64,000 nt of DNA from Pontiellaceae bacterium (GCA_016937945.1 JAFGVP010000102.1:20227-84226), one strand, 5' to 3'; counted from the stretch's first letter, positions 1 to 9,339 are shown. Numbers and translations are program-made. The notes: generated by a model not told the origin, from the sequence alone.

Positions 1-157
1 GTCCACCCGGCCTCCGAGATAGGAAACAGCCATCATCCGGATCATGTTCTCTGCTTCCGCTTTTGCTGCCGGGCTCTCGGCCAGCTGGTAATGAATCCAC
101 AGGGAATCAGCCGAAGCACCAATCAGGGGACGAAGCTGTCGGCAGAGACGAAGGAGT

Positions 158-1060
158 TCATCCGTCACGTTCGTACCAGAGATTGTGGATCAGCACCTCC
201 TTGCGTTCCACGCCCCTCGTTCCTTCCGACACCTTGGTGTTGCCGAGCGAATACTTGGTTTCGATGGATTCTATCCTGAAGTCCGAAAAAATCATCCGCA
301 CTTCCGGCGTATCGTTGAGCGACAGGATAAAACTGCCGTTGATGGTCCTGAGCGTTTCGGCCAGCGTCCTGAAATCCTTTCCGGAAAAGGACACCGCATA
401 AAAGTCGGCATTCCAGTACGGCGGGTCGATGTAAAAGAACGTCTGCGGCGAATCATATTTTCTAATGCAGTCACACGCATCGAGGTTTTCAATGGTGGTA
501 CGAGCCATCCTTTTATGGGTTTCTCGAAGCTGCTCCTCGACAGACGGCAGGTTCAGGGAACTCGGTCGGGTGGAACTGGTGCCAAAGGTTCTATTCACCA
601 CTTTGCCGCCGTAACCCATCCGTTGCAGCCGGTAGTAACGAACCGCCCGCTGAACATCGGTAAGCAGGGACGGGTCCTGTTTCGACTCCAATTGAAACTG
701 TTCCCTCGAAACGAGGGTCAGGTCGATGCAGCGAAGGAATTCCGGCAGATGGTTTTTGACGACTCTCCAGAAATTAACCAGTTCTCCATCTCTATCATTG
801 AGGATTTCAACCCTGCTTTGCGGCTTGGTGAAATAGACCCAGGCTCCGCCGCAGAAAGGTTCCACATAACAGGTATGTTCCGGAATCCGTTCGACGATTC
901 GTTTGGCCAGGCGGGATTTTCCGCCGAGGTACCCCAGCGGACTCTTCATTGGTTTATCGATGATTGCGGTGTTTTGTTCTGCCGTGGTATCGGCGTTGGC
1001 ATCGGTTGTCGGGTCAGCGTTTGTTTCATCGCTGGTTGCTTGTGTGATTGTAGTGGTCAT
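158..1060 (-). CDS. Dam-family (D12 class) N6-adenine DNA methyltransferase
   Basis: Translation shows 'SPLGYLGGKSRLAKRIV...YVEPFCGGAWVYF' (Dam motif I / F-x-GG) and 'FFYIDPPYWNADF' (DPPY motif IV). The ORF track extends to 1177; I chose the first ATG (1058-1060), which begins a Thr/Ala/Asp-rich N-terminal extension. Confidence 0.8.
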   Translation of the reverse strand: MTTTITQATSDETNADPTTDANADTTAEQNTAIIDKPMKSPLGYLGGKSRLAKRIVERIPEHTCYVEPFCGGAWVYFTKPQSRVEILNDRDGELVNFWRVVKNHLPEFLRCIDLTLVSREQFQLESKQDPSLLTDVQRAVRYYRLQRMGYGGKVVNRTFGTSSTRPSSLNLPSVEEQLRETHKRMARTTIENLDACDCIRKYDSPQTFFYIDPPYWNADFYAVSFSGKDFRTLAETLRTINGSFILSLNDTPEVRMIFSDFRIESIETKYSLGNTKVSEGTRGVERKEVLIHNLWYERDG

Positions 1061-1511
1061 TTTGAATGGGATAACGTGCGGAAGGAAAGCGGGAGCTACC
1101 CGGTTGCGGCATCCTCCGGGGCATTGCCGACAGGAACCGGCTTCTTGCCTGGTTCCGTGAAAACCCTTCCCATGCATTGAGGAAGTCGCGCATCACCTGC
1201 GTCAGGTCGCGCCAGCATTCCGTGTTTTCCCGGCGTTTAGCGCTTCTGATCCGCTCCGCCTTTTCCCGGAGCTGTGCTTCAAGGCCCATGGTTCCAAGTC
1301 CCCGGTCAATGTTCGCCCGGTCGAGCTGGAGCAGGCTGCTGTCCACCGAAAGTTCTTCGCTCAGGAGCTCCTGAAGATGTCCGGCCCGAATCCGCAACCG
1401 CTCTATGATCTGGACCGCTGCGACCTCAAGCCGGGTCTCGGTCAGTTCGGAACGACCGTTCATCATGGATTCAATGGCAGATTGTGCAGAGGATTCCGGG
1501 AATTGTTTCAT
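1026..1511 (-). CDS. hypothetical protein; its 3' end overlaps the methyltransferase start
   Basis: 161-aa ORF directly upstream of the methyltransferase on the same strand, overlapping it by ~35 nt. No recognisable motifs. Could be a controller-like small protein or spurious. Confidence 0.3.
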   Translation of the reverse strand: MKQFPESSAQSAIESMMNGRSELTETRLEVAAVQIIERLRIRAGHLQELLSEELSVDSSLLQLDRANIDRGLGTMGLEAQLREKAERIRSAKRRENTECWRDLTQVMRDFLNAWEGFSRNQARSRFLSAMPRRMPQPGSSRFPSARYPIQNDHYNHTSNQR

Positions 1512-1683: not shown

Positions 1684-2277
1684 ATGGATCAAAAACCGAC
1701 GTCCGAAAGCCCGGTCCGGGGCAGACAACGCCAGGCAGTCTATGCGGCCTTGAAACATCCGGCGACCGGAAGGCAGATTCTTGAAGCTGCCCGGAAGACA
1801 GCGCCATCCATGAGTTATCAGGACCTTCGCCACATTCTGCGTGATTTTCAGGACAAGGGACTCGTGATCTGCCTGAACCCGGAACAACAGACAGGACGAC
1901 TGTATTCATTGGCAAACTTTTGGGAAAATTTATCCCGAAACGCGACCTTGATTTACCTCTCTTCCCGAATAAGCCGGGCAAAAACACGGCTCGCCGTTTT
2001 AAAGGAGGTGGCCAAGGAACGTTTCTTTGAATCCCGGCCATTGACTGCAACAACAATCAGGAAACTGATGAGAGAGAGCTATCCGATGGGGCTCAACCAT
2101 GTACTGGCGGCGCTGAAATTCCTGGAGGGACATGGGGTCATTGAAGTCTGCGGATACACGGATAAGCGGGAGCTTAAAATCTACCGGATCACCAATCTCG
2201 GACGGAACGTCATGGAAGGATTGCTTCAGGAAAGAACTGATTCTGTCACGGAAAGTACCCCTAACAGAATGCCTTAA
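1684..2277 (+). CDS. putative winged-helix DNA-binding transcriptional regulator
   Basis: 197-aa protein with two wHTH-like segments ('YQDLRHILRDFQDKGLVICL...GRLYSL' and 'LNHVLAALKFLEGHGVIEV...KIYRITNLG'). Convergent with the large NTPase and overlaps its 3' end by 17 nt. Confidence 0.5.
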   Translation: MDQKPTSESPVRGRQRQAVYAALKHPATGRQILEAARKTAPSMSYQDLRHILRDFQDKGLVICLNPEQQTGRLYSLANFWENLSRNATLIYLSSRISRAKTRLAVLKEVAKERFFESRPLTATTIRKLMRESYPMGLNHVLAALKFLEGHGVIEVCGYTDKRELKIYRITNLGRNVMEGLLQERTDSVTESTPNRMP

Positions 2278-5200
2278 GATCTTTTTCCGTAACATAGGGA
2301 AAAAGAACCTCTGCGCGTTTGCTGATTTCAGCACGGAAGCTGGATTTCTTTTGCTCATGACAGCCAAAGTTATCCATCAACTCGGTTTCAATGAGGTTCA
2401 ATAGGTTTCCATATGCTTTTTGTAGCTCATCTATAGAATCCTGAAGATTTTTGATGTAGTTTTCAGCATTAGCTTTGTTTCCGTCCTTGGACGAAATCGG
2501 TTCGCATCCACAAGCAACCGGAAGCAGCTCGAACAATAACTTCAAAGGATCGCGAGCATCCATAAGCGCATCCCGGACGGCCACAGTGGTTGGTGATATG
2601 CTCTTGGTCTTTTGGGAGTACGGGGGCAAGCCTGCCACCAAGATGCACAATGGGCGAACCACATCCAATAATTCGGGTTCATTCGATAACTTTAAGATAT
2701 TTAAGACAGATGCCAGGCGTTCGAACGCATCAGTTCGCAACCCAGATACATTACAGTATTGGAATTCAAAAATTTCGGGTTTTTTAGTTAAGCGAAGGAA
2801 TTCGGCACCTGTTAGTTCACTGATAAATGTCCCGTTTTCATAACAGGCGATATTTTGCTTGTTGATCGCGTAGAAAATGGCGAGCAGTAGCGGGGCTAAA
2901 CCTCCCCTTATTCCGTATGGAGCCTCGGATAGCTCTCCTAGCAGAACATCGACTGAGACGGGGTCATCTACTTCATCCTTTAGGCGCTTTTCCAAGTAGC
3001 TAAACGTTGGTCTTAAGTTGAGGATGTCCATACGTTTACTTGGAATCTCAAAATGGGCTGATTCACCAGTCGAGACATGTAGTGCACCCGCTTGAAGTAC
3101 CGACATGTACATAGACATTTCTGGAGGCTTCTTAGTTTGATCCATTCCCAAGAAAGGCTTGTCCGGAAATTCCAAAACTCCCTCAATTAGGCGCATTCTT
3201 GCCGCGGCGGCCGCTGAGCTGATATTACGACGATTGATAAGCTCATTATTTATGAGCGGAGCCTCTTCATAAAGGTCATCGCAAATATCTGACAATGCGG
3301 ATATAAGGGCCTTGCCGGAAGAAACGTTAAGGGGTTCACCTTTCCAGAAGCACTTAAGTGAAAAGCTTCTACCAGTTTGATCAAATCCAATAGCATTACT
3401 GATGGCCTCTTCCAAGGCTAGTTCTGCTGCCACCCGTTTCCTGGATACGGTTTCCCGAGCGTATTTGTCCCCATTTAGCTCTGGGGTGTTTGTGGCGATC
3501 CACTCCCACACCTGAACCTCTCGAATGAGCGGAGTCAGCCTTTGGAGTTGCCCGGGAATAATCACCAGACAATTCCTTAGATCATTGAATTCGGAGGACT
3601 GAGCTTTTTTTATGGCCTCTGCAACATCTGCTTTATTTAAGCACAAGGGTGTGAGAGCTACACCGTCAGCATCGATTTCCAGCAAGCGTGATGGATCGGA
3701 CAAATCAGAGGGTTTGCAAAATGCGATCGGAAAGTGGCGCAAGTTACCGGTTTCTATGTAATGTCGCCTTGCCACAAGATTGGTATTCTCAAGGTGGGTT
3801 TTGATGAATTCGGTTGGGCTTGTTACTGGTCCAATCATGCTTTCGGCAGACTCTTGTGCCCTCTGCAAGTCAGCGCTTATGTGAGGCCATAGGCACAAGC
3901 CTCCTGCTCTTCCACGATCAAATAAAACGCGTTTACCCTCATCCGACTGGAGGGACTGCACGGCTGCATGAACTCTTTTGTCGTCTACCCGGCCAGTGAT
4001 GCAAAGTGAAACCACCTCCGGCGTCGCTTTAAGGTCGTTGTTGTTCAATAGATTAAACACGCCAACCGTTTTAACGATCTGCGCATGGAGCGGCTGATCC
4101 GTGATATACGAGCCGACCATCGAGTCGATGGTTGTCCAATGAGTCGATGAAAAGGATGAAGCTAGGTGGTGCCCAAGGTTCGAGTGAATATAATCGTAGA
4201 AATTATGTGTTCGATAGGGTTCGTTTTCGCTGAAACCCAGAAACGATTGCAACGCATATGCTTCACTTCCAAATAAAAAGCTAAAGATCGACCTTTGGTT
4301 TTGCCCGAATCTATGGAGAACTCGGCTAAGGAGAGGCAGCACAGATGGGTCTAATGGATATATTGTATGAGCAATTTTATTCAAGCTACCCATATTTGCC
4401 CCGGCACCATACCATCCTTGCTGAACCGCCTGATCCATGGCCTTGCGTGCATTTGTGATTTGCGATGGAGTGAGGTTTTTCGCGTCAACATTCAGGGCTT
4501 CGCTGACCAATGCTGTGGTCTGTTCCATCGGATGCTGAAACACGATTTCATCATATCTACCGGCAACCTTCTCCCATTCATGTTTTGCCGTTAGTCCTAG
4601 TGCAGATGCATATGCGCCAAATCCTTGGTGCAAAATTCCGATGATGAAAAATGGCGTGTTGCCGCTTCGTGATGCTTCTTCTGCCAAGCGTTGCATTAGA
4701 AATACATCACTTTCTCCGGCTTGTGATGCCGCAAACTCAAGGGATTTCCCTAGTTCGTCAATGATAAGAAGCAGACCTGTTCCTTTCTTGTCCGCTCTCA
4801 CTTTTTCATTTACAGCGGTCAGAAGCTCCAAAACCTCGCTATCGGTTAAGGATTCATGCTTAAGAATGGATGCGATTTTATTCCGACCTTGTCCAAACCC
4901 AGCAGGATAATGGTGCCTGATGGCATCCTCGATACCACGCCTGATCGTAGCGGACAAAGGCTCTCTAGAACCGGTAACGAGAATTGGGAGAAGATTGGGC
5001 TTCTCTGCATTGAGTCTTGAATAGGCCAGCTGGGTCGATAGTTTACCGGGGAACTTTCCCGCATGCCCGGCAAACCAATGGGCAAGGAGCAGGGCGAAGC
5101 TGGATTTGCCAGAACCATAGTCGCCAATGAGTCGCCAGCTTCTCTGACTCGAATCGCGACGCAGACCACTTGAAATTCTGCGCAGGCAATCGATAGCAAC

Positions 5201-5308
5201 ATCAGTCAGGACATATGAGGTTAGTGCCTTTCGGTCATAGAAATCCCGTTCTAGATGAGTAGAGCGGAGGAAGCGCTGGGGAGGCTTAATTCGGGGTTGG
5301 CTTTTCAT
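2261..5308 (-). CDS. large P-loop NTPase, BrxC/PglY-like or KAP-family-like (candidate defence ATPase, SspC-like)
   Basis: 1015 aa. Walker A 'GDYGSGKSSFALLLAHWF' (G-x-[WY]-G-x-GKS-x-F, as in KAP/BrxC NTPases). Walker B 'LLLIIDELGKS'. Low-GC sequence compared with the flanks. Start overlaps the stop of the upstream DUF4007-like gene (operon). Confidence 0.75.
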   Translation of the reverse strand: MKSQPRIKPPQRFLRSTHLERDFYDRKALTSYVLTDVAIDCLRRISSGLRRDSSQRSWRLIGDYGSGKSSFALLLAHWFAGHAGKFPGKLSTQLAYSRLNAEKPNLLPILVTGSREPLSATIRRGIEDAIRHHYPAGFGQGRNKIASILKHESLTDSEVLELLTAVNEKVRADKKGTGLLLIIDELGKSLEFAASQAGESDVFLMQRLAEEASRSGNTPFFIIGILHQGFGAYASALGLTAKHEWEKVAGRYDEIVFQHPMEQTTALVSEALNVDAKNLTPSQITNARKAMDQAVQQGWYGAGANMGSLNKIAHTIYPLDPSVLPLLSRVLHRFGQNQRSIFSFLFGSEAYALQSFLGFSENEPYRTHNFYDYIHSNLGHHLASSFSSTHWTTIDSMVGSYITDQPLHAQIVKTVGVFNLLNNNDLKATPEVVSLCITGRVDDKRVHAAVQSLQSDEGKRVLFDRGRAGGLCLWPHISADLQRAQESAESMIGPVTSPTEFIKTHLENTNLVARRHYIETGNLRHFPIAFCKPSDLSDPSRLLEIDADGVALTPLCLNKADVAEAIKKAQSSEFNDLRNCLVIIPGQLQRLTPLIREVQVWEWIATNTPELNGDKYARETVSRKRVAAELALEEAISNAIGFDQTGRSFSLKCFWKGEPLNVSSGKALISALSDICDDLYEEAPLINNELINRRNISSAAAAARMRLIEGVLEFPDKPFLGMDQTKKPPEMSMYMSVLQAGALHVSTGESAHFEIPSKRMDILNLRPTFSYLEKRLKDEVDDPVSVDVLLGELSEAPYGIRGGLAPLLLAIFYAINKQNIACYENGTFISELTGAEFLRLTKKPEIFEFQYCNVSGLRTDAFERLASVLNILKLSNEPELLDVVRPLCILVAGLPPYSQKTKSISPTTVAVRDALMDARDPLKLLFELLPVACGCEPISSKDGNKANAENYIKNLQDSIDELQKAYGNLLNLIETELMDNFGCHEQKKSSFRAEISKRAEVLFPYVTEKDLKAFC

Positions 5309-6216
5309 TCGTAAATTTCCCGCAATAACTCAGTGAGTGCCTGATCAAAATCGTCGAATTTTCTTTCAAGTGATCGGCTCGTAGACGAATCCGTGAAAAC
5401 AAAATAATCAGAATAGTTACCCAAGTCATTGAGCCGTTCTTGGATGCCTTCCCCGGAAAGCTTTAATATTTGTCCGGGACTACCAATATCGTTGACGATT
5501 TGTTCGAACGACAGCGTCCGCTCATCTGTGGCATTGAGGCACCAGTAATCTGTCAGGCAGTAAAGAAATAGTCCGAGGCTAATCTCAGGTTTTTCGCCTC
5601 GCCGGAAGGTATAGATTGGTTCTTTCCTGCCAAAGGAACCGTCTCGATCCCCTGCATATTCAATCAAGCGAAGTTGTACCAGTGGGCAGTCGAGATTATC
5701 TTCCACCACTTTATTCTTTTTCCCACGGGTTGGTACGTATGTGTGTAAAAAGACGCTTAACATGCTATCGAGGGAGTTTTTCGATAGCTTATGACTGCCT
5801 TCCAAATCTCGAATCATCATCGGCAGAATAACCGAGCCAACCATTTCTGATTCTTGCCACCGGTTTAACAAATAGTGCCACGCAAAAAGAGGCTCAGGTG
5901 CTGTCGAGAGTCGCCAGTGCAATAACCACAACGTTTGCGAGTCCTCTAGGTACGGATCAAGTCCATCAATGGGATCCAGCAAATCTCCCCCGAAAGGAGT
6001 CACCTCATATGCCCGTCCGCCATGGGACTCTATGATTCCGAGAAGCAAAGCCCAGAATCGGATGGAGCGAACCATATTCTTTCCTACACCAAGCAGCACC
6101 ATCGCCTGGTCTTCATCGGAAAAAACATCTCCATATGCTTTTACGGCATTATATGCCTTTGGTAGCCATGCATATCTAAATGCAAACGTCTCATGCCCGG
6201 AAAACTTGAAATCCAC
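5305..6216 (-). CDS. DUF4007-like protein (SspB-like candidate)
   Basis: 303 aa. N-terminus 'MDFKFSGHETFAFRYAWLPKAY', which I recall as characteristic of DUF4007 (the SspB family of the Ssp phosphorothioation system). GTG start with a GAGGG Shine-Dalgarno 7 nt upstream. Translationally coupled to the NTPase. Confidence 0.65.
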   Translation of the reverse strand: MDFKFSGHETFAFRYAWLPKAYNAVKAYGDVFSDEDQAMVLLGVGKNMVRSIRFWALLLGIIESHGGRAYEVTPFGGDLLDPIDGLDPYLEDSQTLWLLHWRLSTAPEPLFAWHYLLNRWQESEMVGSVILPMMIRDLEGSHKLSKNSLDSMLSVFLHTYVPTRGKKNKVVEDNLDCPLVQLRLIEYAGDRDGSFGRKEPIYTFRRGEKPEISLGLFLYCLTDYWCLNATDERTLSFEQIVNDIGSPGQILKLSGEGIQERLNDLGNYSDYFVFTDSSTSRSLERKFDDFDQALTELLREIYE

Positions 6217-7005
6217 AATAACCCTCGCTTAAGCCCAAAGGAGTCTGTCTCATAAATAAATGATCTGCTATGCGAAAAGCAAACTTCTGAAAGCCTTTGT
6301 GCCACATAGTGGCCACCATCAAACGTAATGTTTGCATAAATAATGGAAAAGGTACGAGCCAAGCCGACATTCCGCAAGCCCAACCCTATGGGAAGATATT
6401 ACCCGTTAGCTGCCTCGCAACTAGGAGTTTTAGTATTTTTTACTAACGAAGGGAGTATGCCAAGGAACCGACTAGTAGGGCGAATGCTCAGCAGTCACAA
6501 GTTTCAGAAAAAGGGGCGCTTTGCCTAAATCTCTATCGTCGTGTGCCGCTACGCCAGATTTCCACACCCAGAACATCAAAAAAAGTCCTATGAAGCACAA
6601 GGTGAAGGAGCATAACTAAAACCGTCTTCAAAGGTTCGCTTTTCCACTAGACTGGTGTCCTTGTTGGATGCATTGGGGATTAGTCTACAGTGCCGATGGA
6701 CTAAAAGTTCGCATTTCCATCAAGAATAGGGACCGGTCAAGATGTTCAGGGGTGCATGAAATTCCGGGCATTGAACTCATGGTTCGCATTGCCACCAAGA
6801 AAGGTGGCCAGTCGAGATATAACAGGGGTGTAACTCCAGAGAAGGCGGAGAGCGAACGGAGAATATGCCGCGATGCGGCGGTTTTAAGTGACCAGTTTTA
6901 GGTGTTTAGCGGGGATGGAGAAAACCCGAAATACCGCATTTATTGGCAAAAATGCTCGTAAAAATCAAAAAGCGAACCTCCGAAGAAGTTCGCTGGTTGA
7001 AAAAT

Positions 7006-7083
7006 TGGTCGGAGCGACAAGATTCGAACTTGCGACCTCTACCACCCCAAGGTAGCGCTCTAGCCAGGCTGAGCTACGCCCCG
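7006..7083 (-). tRNA. tRNA-Pro (anticodon GGG)
   Basis: Reverse complement gives CGGGGCG...CTACC-TTGGGGT-GGTAG...GGTCGCAAGTTCGAATCTTGTCGCTCCGACCA. The 7-bp acceptor stem has one G-U pair, the T-arm is GTTCGAATC, and a CCA is encoded. Anticodon loop TTGGGGT gives GGG. Confidence 0.85.
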
Positions 7084-7203
7084 AATTCCGTTTTGTATCG
7101 GAATTGAAGGCGAGGAACGTATCACGAGGGACAGGATGCGTCAACGCCGTCGGCATTAAAAATCGCGCCCCTTTTTCTTTTAAATACGCATCGACACTCT
7201 ACA

Positions 7204-8940
7204 ATGTACGCCATGAACAAAATTCCTACTATTACTGACGATCAACTGGAAAAATATTCATCGGCGATCTCCCTGTCGGACATGGAGATTTTTGTATTTC
7301 CGGAACTGCTTTACAGCCTGGTGCTGGCCAACATGATGTCGCCGCGCATCTGGGAGTGGAAAAACCACGATTGGTTCCGCAAACTCGATAATATGTCGCC
7401 TTATAAAAAGATCCAGCGGCTCAAGCAGTTCATCATCGACAACTATGAATTTAATCTGGATCTGGATACCTGGGGCCTGACCACCAAGCAGTCCGAGATC
7501 GAACGTTTTTCTCCCTACATGGACGAGAAAACCATCAGCCGGAGCAATGCCCTGTTCGGTTACGAGGGAGACAAACACTATTTCTCGCTCGATATCCGCA
7601 AACACTTTGGCCTGGATAAATATACTTCCAATATTATTCCCTTCTGGAAAACGGAGACGCTGGAGGCGATGGATGCGTTTAAGTTCAAGGATGAATACCG
7701 CGTTGGAGCCGGTGAATGCGTATCGCTCTCTACACTTTATGCGGCGGCGCTGTTTATCGTATGCGACATCCCGCTGGAGGATATTTTCCTGCTGGCAACT
7801 CCACTTCATTCACAGAATTTTGTAAACGTGAATGAGGGGATTCTAACCAACAACCGGCGTCTTGTGACCAAAAACATGTGGTTTAACGGAACCGACCTAA
7901 CAGCCAAGGCACAACGCGCGCTACGTAACGAGCAGGTTACTATCGTCGCGAACAATACGGGCTATATTCACACGGTTTATCCTGAAGCCACGATTTCTCC
8001 GAAGAGCTTTGAGACGTTCCGTCAGAAACTGGATGAATTCACAACGTCGGAAATCACCTTCGAAATCATTGCCAACTTCCTGCGCGACCGGTCGGAATAC
8101 CAGAAGTGTTTCCAGATCCGTTACATGCGGCATGGAAAGGCGCAATATCTTCCCATTGAACGGGCATTTGCCTACGAACACGGCTCTCCCTATAAGGTGT
8201 CGGACGATGCAACCCGCGATAAACTGCTGGAAGAAATCGATGAATATGACTTTTACACGGAACCGATTGCCGACCGCATTCTCCTCAACAAGCTGTCGGA
8301 TTACCTGAGAAACAACCCGATCTCACACTTTGATGAAAAGAGCATGACCGAGCTGGCGGAAACCATCGACTGCACCAACGACATGAGCCGCAAGATGTCG
8401 GTCATCGAAGGTCTGATTGACTTTATTCATCTTGAGCCGGAGTTGCCGGACGTAGGCAGCAAGCAGTTTGCCGGACCAGGCCCCATTTCCATAAAGCCCG
8501 GAATGACACGAGAGGAAATTATTCACTATCTGGAGGGATTGCGTGAAACCCACATGATTGCCGATCTGGCCTTCTATGCCTACCGCGATCTGGCAGTAAC
8601 CGACTGGAAGCCCTTCCTTAAAGCCGCGCTAGAACGAAACCCCGTGATTACGGAGGCCACGAATACCCTGTCTGACAGAGAGCTTATTGAAATCCTGCAG
8701 GCTCTTCCGAACGAATCGATCTATGGCGGAAGCCGCGTTGCCCAGCCGGACGAAGTCTGGAACTTCCAGCGGGGTGATGGACTGGAACGTGCAATCGCAC
8801 TGGCCGACGCGTGGAAACAACGACATACCAACGATCCGATTCATCTAGAGTCATCAGAAGGCCGTGTCACCCTGATGATGGGCGAAACGGAAGTTGTTTT
8901 TGAGTCATTCAAAGGCCTCACAAAATCGATCGATTTATAG
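7204..8940 (+). CDS. hypothetical protein, possibly transglutaminase-like cysteine peptidase superfamily
   Basis: 578 aa. 'RVGAGECVSLSTLYAAALFIVCDIP' resembles the transglutaminase-core G-x-C-x-x-[FL]-[AS] ... G-I-P motif, followed by 'LHSQNFVNV' (candidate His). Confidence 0.55.
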   Translation: MYAMNKIPTITDDQLEKYSSAISLSDMEIFVFPELLYSLVLANMMSPRIWEWKNHDWFRKLDNMSPYKKIQRLKQFIIDNYEFNLDLDTWGLTTKQSEIERFSPYMDEKTISRSNALFGYEGDKHYFSLDIRKHFGLDKYTSNIIPFWKTETLEAMDAFKFKDEYRVGAGECVSLSTLYAAALFIVCDIPLEDIFLLATPLHSQNFVNVNEGILTNNRRLVTKNMWFNGTDLTAKAQRALRNEQVTIVANNTGYIHTVYPEATISPKSFETFRQKLDEFTTSEITFEIIANFLRDRSEYQKCFQIRYMRHGKAQYLPIERAFAYEHGSPYKVSDDATRDKLLEEIDEYDFYTEPIADRILLNKLSDYLRNNPISHFDEKSMTELAETIDCTNDMSRKMSVIEGLIDFIHLEPELPDVGSKQFAGPGPISIKPGMTREEIIHYLEGLRETHMIADLAFYAYRDLAVTDWKPFLKAALERNPVITEATNTLSDRELIEILQALPNESIYGGSRVAQPDEVWNFQRGDGLERAIALADAWKQRHTNDPIHLESSEGRVTLMMGETEVVFESFKGLTKSIDL

Positions 8941-8970: not shown

Positions 8971-9339
8971 ATGAAAAGCATAATTAAGATAGGATTGGCG
9001 GTTATTGCTATGAGTCTGCTTGGAAATCTTCTATTTCGCGGCGGCGCCGACAAAGGCACTGACATTCCTGCCCTCATTAAAGACGGAGCATTGGTCATTG
9101 ATACCCGGACAGCCGGGGAATATGCCGGAGGACACATTGAAGGGGCGGTCAATATTCCCTACGACATTATCCGAAATGTCATCTGCAAGCATGCCAAGGA
9201 TAAATCCAAATCGATCATTGTCTACTGCCAAAGCGGAAGCCGCTCGGGCATGGCTAAAAGAGCCCTTGAGCAGGCCGGCTACACCAATGTGGTGAACGGC
9301 GGCGGGTTGCATCATATGCAGCATGCTCTGCAACCCTAA
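8971..9339 (+). CDS. rhodanese-domain sulfurtransferase (secreted/periplasmic)
   Basis: 122 aa with an N-terminal signal peptide and an active-site loop 'CQSGSRSG' in a rhodanese fold ('VIDTRTAGEYAGGHIEGAVNIP'). Confidence 0.8.
   Translation: MKSIIKIGLAVIAMSLLGNLLFRGGADKGTDIPALIKDGALVIDTRTAGEYAGGHIEGAVNIPYDIIRNVICKHAKDKSKSIIVYCQSGSRSGMAKRALEQAGYTNVVNGGGLHHMQHALQP

Follow-up and report, generated by a model that had tools for sequence, protein, structure and literature searches.

A Dam-family adenine methyltransferase of a Pontiellaceae bacterium as a probable accessory gene of a small integrase-linked HerA/FtsK ATPase cassette

In a 64-kb stretch of DNA from a Pontiellaceae bacterium (GCA_016937945.1, JAFGVP010000102.1:20227-84226; this whole stretch is hereafter the window), a gene encoding a DNA adenine methyltransferase (positions 158-1060, minus strand) lies about 1.2 kb from a homologue of the defence gene sspC, beyond which is one of sspB. 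Comparison of this region with related loci leads us to regard the methylase, with reasonable though not full confidence, as accessory to a small cassette that is linked to an integrase, and as neither a partner of the Ssp genes nor one half of a restriction-modification (R-M) pair. As judged from sequence and gene order, the conserved core of the cassette comprises a divergently transcribed regulator with two winged-helix domains; an operon encoding a coiled-coil protein (designated cc146), a HerA/FtsK-family ATPase and a small winged-helix protein of 113 residues (p113); and a tyrosine integrase located immediately upstream or downstream. The locus illustrates that adjacency to a defence NTPase module does not make a methylase part of that module. 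The enzyme itself is fairly ordinary; the cassette that hosts it is of moderate interest as a common module that has so far gone uncharacterised.

The methylase is a D12/Dam-family N6-adenine DNA methyltransferase of 300 residues that begins MTTTITQ at an ATG (1058-1060), and the longest open reading frame (ORF), extending to 1177, is unnecessary to account for it. The protein matches the Pfam family MethyltransfD12 (PF02086; 3.2e-28, 99.6 bits against a cut-off of 22) over profile positions 1-252 of 253, and the PADLOC model MTase_II (PDLC03253) at 1.1e-72. Its S-adenosylmethionine-binding motif I (FCGG, residues 69-72, nucleotides 845-856) and catalytic motif IV (DPPY, residues 212-215, nucleotides 416-427) follow the alpha-group order, and in an alignment of 25 homologues G71 and D212-Y215 never vary and F69 hardly does. 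The AlphaFold2 model is confident over the core, and Foldseek aligns it with E. coli Dam (2.4e-16), Mcbe1, DpnM and T4 Dam (E-values from 2e-16 to 1e-9, template-modelling (TM) scores up to 0.8); Mcbe1, DpnM and E. coli Dam are its closest solved relatives by sequence as well as by fold. With these enzymes it shares the Rossmann fold, an N-terminal GGK, the FxGG and DPPY motifs and their order (fold likeness E 2e-16, TM 0.72-0.80); it differs from them in being only about 20% identical and in carrying a disordered N-terminal tail of 36 residues. Because it scores under the cut-off of the NCBIfam "dam" subfamily TIGR00571 (93.2 versus 114.85 bits), we class it as a D12/Dam-family enzyme and not as Dam proper; it also falls far under the Dam equivalog model PRK10904 (38.4 versus 441 bits). 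An earlier note on this DNA had proposed a Dam-family N6-adenine methyltransferase with clear motifs I and IV, and that identification is borne out by Pfam, PADLOC, alignment and fold. The gene encodes a real, apparently active Dam-type adenine methylase and adds a new member to the Dam family.

Relatives of the methylase were collected in a scan with one genome per species, yielding 80 loci (cited here by L numbers), and cassette gene order was recovered across loci by tblastn and clustering. The exact methylase sequence is also present on three other contigs, the window's own locus being represented by L001-L003. In the 14 closest cassette loci (L004-L016 and L028), all from Kiritimatiellota or Verrucomicrobiota, the regulator faces an operon ordered cc146, methylase, ATPase, p113 and, sometimes, a 78-residue protein (p78), and three further contigs (L084, L085 and L089) show the identical arrangement. 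The presumed regulator, a double winged-helix protein of 197 residues encoded divergently from the operon at 1684-2277 (plus strand), gives weak HxlR/PadR matches and has counterparts with 45-61% identity in 12 cassette loci. The gene after it in relatives is that of the integrase, missing from the window's copy. Where enough flanking sequence is available, a tyrosine integrase of 420 residues (matched by Pfam and PHROG models) occurs after the regulator or just downstream of the operon in 13 of 13 loci, a count that excludes the contig-edge loci L007, L008, L011 and L016. One metagenome-assembled genome carries three diverged copies of the cassette (72-79% DNA identity) whose common block, about 5.4 kb, runs from the integrase to p78, and the cultured Pontiellaceae isolates B12227 (L006) and B12219 (L010) have complete copies. 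Extra genes accompany several cassette loci, namely those for an SSB-like protein and two small proteins, with HipA in some cases; a gene for a HipA-family kinase toxin lies between the SSB-like gene and the integrase in L006 (5280-6515), and also in L012 and L013. Between operon and regulator, the divergent intergenic region at 1512-1683 is taken as a control region from its position only: neither a sigma-70-like promoter nor a repeat was found in it, and promoter, terminator and repeat scans of 1-2400 returned nothing above chance.

At its other side the methylase gene overlaps by 11 nt the gene for the ATPase, of which the window holds the first 56 codons (1-168, minus strand, from a GTG at 168) before the gene runs off the left edge; on L001 and L002 the protein is complete at 445 residues. 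It belongs to the HerA/FtsK family (Pfam DUF87, 3e-10; NCBIfam CedD, 2.7e-27, along with HerA models), a profile-based search of PDB sequences retrieves HerA proteins at about 1e-9, and its Walker A (GSGKT) and Walker B (LEEAH) motifs are invariant. The earlier note had found no nuclease gene adjacent to the methylase within the window and had proposed looking upstream of position 1 for an endonuclease. That inspection was carried out over 10 kb beyond the left edge, read on other contigs (about 74 kb in total): the cut-off neighbour is the ATPase, followed by the genes for p113 and p78 and then by a convergent membrane protein gene and TrkA/TrkH. No nuclease next to the methylase is recognised by family match in the window or in this extension, so that the observation holds over a larger region than the one on which it was made. 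Among the cassette partners only the ATPase matches a family; family searches with p113 and p78 gave no nuclease match and nothing above any curated cut-off, and profile searches of the two against PDB sequences yielded nothing significant. An ordinary Type II R-M system with its endonuclease just outside the window, for which the best PADLOC match of the enzyme ("Type II methyltransferase") would speak, thus retains only a negligible likelihood: the cut-off neighbour is an ATPase and not an endonuclease, none of the gene products just listed for the 10 kb matches a nuclease family, and no cognate restriction endonuclease adjoins the methylase.

Several minor observations concern these neighbours. 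The p78 gene, the last of the operon (L001 2829-3065), is highly conserved and encodes several cysteines within the motif YSGRGMYG..CYGI.C; its sole match is PHROG 14658, which has no assigned function (3.6e-10), so that relatives of p78 occur in phages. A viral origin of the ATPase was considered and rejected, in that its two matches labelled "Bacteriophage sp." are domain-level at 22% identity and the one examined lies inside an ORF of 1059 residues; plasmid matches are likewise domain-level only, within proteins of about 1000 residues in defence-like contexts, and are uninformative. About 8 kb to the left of the window, L001 (9063-9707) encodes a 214-residue product with a C5 cytosine methylase domain (PF00145), apparently too short to be complete. 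This gene adjoins sequence related to c17, which codes for a product of about 200 residues and is the immediate neighbour of the cassette in L004-L006.

The first gene of the operon, cc146 (1026-1511, minus strand; supported by homologues, an AlphaFold2 model and synteny), bears on a further suggestion of the earlier note, that an ORF overlapping the methylase start might be a controller-type protein, a remnant of an R-M system or spurious. It is a real, conserved gene: 60 homologues were retrieved, with E-values down to 1.5e-59, and a profile search recovered 272 cluster representatives (50% clustering level, E <= 1e-3). It can be read as 161 residues from an ATG at 1511 or as 146 residues from an ATG at 1466, the start chosen by gene callers; since residues preceding the latter start are conserved with the homologue P0242, the 161-residue reading is probably right. 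The predicted fold comprises two long helices forming a hairpin and a disordered tail, and Foldseek returned only generic helical hairpins (E >0.1), with no nuclease or helix-turn-helix (HTH) fold. The ORF is therefore not spurious, and the proposals of a controller or an R-M remnant find no support. In one distant locus (L097, 4240-5166; P0309) a member of the cc146 family extends to 308 residues, with about 150 additional N-terminal residues lacking a family match, and the ATPase gene comes directly after it.

An unusual feature of the enzyme lies at the junction between cc146 and the methylase. The unusual, low-complexity N-terminal tail of about 36 residues to which the earlier note had drawn attention proved to be a distinct feature: codons 1-36 (953-1060, minus strand), rich in Thr, Ala, Asp and Asn, are disordered in the AlphaFold2 model (predicted local distance difference test score <50 for residues 1 to about 36). 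A tail is present in every methylase of the cassette clade, usually at 18-21 residues and variable in length and sequence, the window's version differing from that of the closest relative by an in-frame insertion of about 36 nt; no tandem repeat was found in it. It is missing from the 55-58% identical methylases of a prophage clade, which start with M[NK]SPL. The first 35 nt of the methylase gene double, in another frame, as the coding end of cc146, and across homologues the methylase ATG keeps its place in the tail codons of cc146, [N/H/D][D/E/G] there being encoded as xAT-Gxx. The low-complexity tail thus sits at the cassette's coiled-coil/methylase gene junction, and it is probably a flexible linker that arose from the gene overlap.

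More distant cassettes differ in that they have no methylase at this junction. In L095, L096, L097 and L099, where the ATPase is 49-53% identical to that of the window, cc146 directly precedes the ATPase gene. The cassette ATPase has more than 200 metagenome matches, and a metagenome scan anchored on it gave 80 loci whose ORFs were then profile-searched. Among the 67 of these with upstream sequence, cc146 abuts the ATPase gene in 64 (median gap -4 nt), the p113 gene was recovered in 62, and in no case does a methylase lie between cc146 and the ATPase; where at least 3 kb of flank was available on both sides (22 loci), the integrase was found in 15 and the regulator in 19. The absence of the enzyme from these four contigs and 67 metagenome loci marks it as a clade-specific insertion, and to judge by these gene orders it is dispensable for the cassette module. 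A methylase occurs anywhere in only one of the 80 metagenome loci (L173, 1856-2401): a different D12 enzyme, about 31% identical over the N-terminus only, located some 430 nt downstream of the ATPase gene in the usual place of p113. Here the module may have acquired a Dam-type methylase for a second time, independently of the first.

Beyond the cassette clade, the nearest methylases, the tail-less group at 55-58% identity, adjoin genes for a terminase and a Mu-type portal in prophages. These orphan Dam-like enzymes of Mu-like prophages (L087, L019, L030-L032) resemble the window's enzyme in size, motifs, carriage by mobile DNA and lack of a cognate nuclease; they differ in being tail-less and in lying after the portal gene of a tailed prophage, outside any HerA-ATPase operon. 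Tail-less members of the family are multi-copy in several genomes (L020, L044, L052, L070 and others), with three, for example, in Desulfosarcina widdelii, which fits carriage on prophages or other repeated elements. The simplest history suggested by these comparisons is that a phage-type methylase was captured into the operon in one clade of Kiritimatiellota/Verrucomicrobiota, and the enzyme would then be a clear case of an orphan methylase of phage type that a mobile element took up into the middle of a tightly overlapping operon.

Orphan Dam methylases carried by phages and plasmids usually protect from restriction. By analogy, the present enzyme most likely provides a mobile element with protective or epigenetic methylation. 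The cassette would be the core of an integrative mobile element; release of the operon by its regulator would lead to production of the methylase together with the ATPase; the methylase would modify adenines in a short, possibly GATC-like motif on element and host DNA; and this methylation would shield the DNA of the element from restriction in its current or next host. More tentatively still, and with the balance tilted slightly against it in our estimation, the five-gene unit of regulator, cc146, ATPase, p113 and integrase might constitute a widespread family of minimal integrative elements that has not been described before, or else a module for DNA handling that is borne by an element; in one clade of the PVC (Planctomycetes-Verrucomicrobia-Chlamydiae) group this unit would have captured a phage-type Dam methylase in the operon by way of overlapping frames. 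If this is true, the methylase would be made along with the DNA-translocating ATPase, and the two may act together on the DNA handled by the latter. More broadly, environmental bacteria seem to share a compact and common HerA-ATPase module, linked to an integrase and apparently uncharacterised.

Two kinds of known mobile system offer parallels. Actinomycete integrative and conjugative elements (AICEs) are small integrative units with a single FtsK-like protein, TraB (PMC3429521, PMC3218068). Going by the available portions of those accounts, the cassette is like them in that a tyrosine integrase and a winged-helix repressor occur together with one ATPase of the FtsK/HerA superfamily; it is unlike them in that its ATPase is HerA/DUF87-like without a membrane anchor, in that genes for Rep, Spd and Nudix proteins are absent, and in that its hosts are diderm members of the PVC group and other environmental bacteria. 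We do not claim membership of the cassette in this class. The mobile operons and "capture" systems built on HerA/FtsK proteins (PMC10853773), in so far as the accessible part of that source describes them, likewise unite a HerA/FtsK ATPase with HTH proteins and a Y-recombinase, in neighbourhoods that look in part like mobile elements and in part like defence systems, but theirs carry a D5 helicase, an Orc/Cdc6 ATPase or restriction endonuclease domains, of which the cassette has none; cc146 and the winged-helix p113 are not among the operons set out in that same part. The cassette therefore differs from AICEs and from HerA/FtsK operons in its partner proteins, and apparently has no description in those portions of the literature with which it was compared.

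A number of results weigh against an integrative element. Neither att repeats nor the ends of an element could be delimited in the cassette loci; direct repeats there amount to short, weak pairs, such as L089 37-60 versus 9172-9195 at 79%, and no tRNA genes were found in 12 related loci. Genes for replication (Rep) or a relaxase were not recognised, and the ATPase lacks both a membrane segment and close relatives among viral contigs (IMG/VR). Counts of GATC and other palindromes in the window are uninformative on the target of the methylase. Integrase adjacency is also typical of defence islands, and the ATPase matches the PADLOC model mad8 (3.5e-11), HerA models and NCBIfam HerA_antiphage.

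The last two of these points bring in the main rival account, in which the cassette would be a defence system residing in integrase-associated islands: its ATPase and partners would attack or exclude foreign DNA and, in this clade, the methylase would provide the self-mark, as in a variant of R-M. Besides the defence-type ATPase models, the methylase also matches the PADLOC PD-Lambda-5_B model (6e-27); HerA/FtsK "capture" systems with HTH partners are known, as the accessible part of PMC10853773 indicates; and an unrelated second D12 methylase stands next to the module in L173. In L085 (1-7526), moreover, the cassette integrase abuts a pair resembling CBASS (cyclic oligonucleotide-based antiphage signalling system), SAVED/HNH with a DncV-like nucleotidyltransferase, together with a Type I R-M system, so that the element there lies at the edge of a defence island. 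Family, profile and fold searches, however, disclosed no nuclease or other effector domain in any cassette protein, and cc146, p113 and p78 have no PADLOC match. At least 68 versions of the cassette lack the methylase, from which it follows that methylation is not intrinsic to the mechanism, and integrase and regulator accompany the module in two fixed arrangements, as one would expect for an element's core and not for its cargo. Weakened by the lack of an effector domain and by the predominance of methylase-free versions, a defence role for the core module appears unlikely, and we continue to prefer a mobile element that carries the methylase as an accessory.

Described defence systems were also considered as homes for the cassette. 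In MADS (methylation-associated defence system), mad6, mad7 and mad8 are mandatory and the methylase resembles Type I enzymes and has a bipartite motif (10.1101/2023.03.30.534895); this assignment was rejected, the ATPase giving no more than the generic mad8/HerA-level match already noted, with no match to any other mad model. BREX (bacteriophage exclusion) types 1-3, 5 and 6 were set aside as there is no match to PglZ, PglX or BrxL and the sole BrxC-like match is SspC itself. MANTIS and the BREX-related BR/BRC systems were likewise dismissed, since they have PglZ, STAND and DUF499 components, which are lacking here, and since the cassette shows no linkage to the DUF4007/SspC pair.

The Ssp genes to the right of the cassette are bona fide homologues of SspB and SspC of the SspABCD-SspE phosphorothioation defence, lying outside the cassette at 2261-6216. 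sspB (DUF4007; 5305-6216, minus strand; Pfam 1.3e-68, PADLOC SspB 4e-96) encodes 303 residues, the same length as SspB of the intact relative locus L090, and is apparently intact. sspC (a BrxC-like NTPase; 2261-5308, minus strand) matches PADLOC SspC at 1153 bits but leaves the last ~57 profile positions unmatched; its product has 1015 residues, against 1136-1157 (about 1140) in all homologues, and aligns without gaps to its last residue with a 65%-identical relative (P0123), ending at residue 1016 of the latter, some 125 residues short. The truncation falls exactly at the junction with the cassette (about 2261-2277), where the 3' ends of the regulator gene and sspC overlap and where relatives carry the integrase. 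A SspABCD(-E) or BREX type 4-like system comprises intact SspB and SspC, a PAPS-reductase (SspD/BrxP) and effector genes, and in L090 the genes run SspB-SspC-SspD, a GmrSD-like protein, SIR2, an 807-residue protein and SspA. Neither sspD, sspE and sspA nor the missing 3' part of sspC is present on either side of the cassette in the ~74 kb, and no integrase was found there. SspB and SspC are likewise absent from 82 other loci searched (L001 and L003-L083, the 14 cassette loci included), from the gene tables of L084, L085 and L089, and from all 80 metagenome loci.

These findings argue strongly against the suggestion of the earlier note that the methylase might be the self/non-self mark of the Ssp- or BREX-like module. 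In such a reading it would replace phosphorothioation. The methylase is encoded on the same strand as sspC and close to it, and systems related to BREX do swap modification enzymes (PMC12839542). Set against this are the truncation of sspC at the very junction, the absence of the further Ssp genes of L090, the lack of any association of the methylase with SspB/SspC elsewhere and the divergently transcribed regulator gene between the two sets, and we hold the proposal to be very improbable. A simple insertion of the cassette into sspC was also rejected, because the missing sspC end and sspD, sspE and sspA are found on neither side. We conclude instead that the integrase arm and the distal Ssp genes were lost together in a deletion or rearrangement; that the methylase now neighbours Ssp genes is accordingly an accident of decay, and the two do not form an operon. 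The very high PADLOC scores of sspB and sspC mean that automated tools might count them as Ssp genes, and annotation pipelines could thus mistake what is wreckage for a system.

Lacking an integrase and abutting a truncated sspC, the window's copy of the cassette is an immobilised remnant, yet all six of its reading frames are intact. This retention, despite the loss of both the integrase and the element's left arm, would be compatible with domestication, the methylase now serving the host as an orphan Dam-like enzyme that regulates genes, takes part in repair or times replication; immobilised elements are sometimes kept for host functions, according to the part of PMC8987985 that was available. 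The case comes from a single genome, however, intact frames could simply reflect a recent deletion, and the methylase gene remains in the element's operon under the element's regulator, so that domestication strikes us as quite improbable, and an accessory gene carried by the element remains the account we prefer.

To the right of the Ssp genes, a 578-residue ORF without a Pfam or PADLOC match (7204-8940) adjoins a gene for tRNA-Pro(GGG) at 7006-7083 (minus strand; tRNA call), and the ~790 nt between sspB and this tRNA gene (6217-7005) contain no convincing gene. No exact repeat of 11 nt or longer from the tRNA-Pro region was found at the far end of the low-GC island of which the tRNA gene forms the right bound. 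From sspC to tRNA-Pro (2261-7200) the GC content is 46-47%, against 55% in the rest of the window, and this segment looks like an old island at tRNA-Pro.

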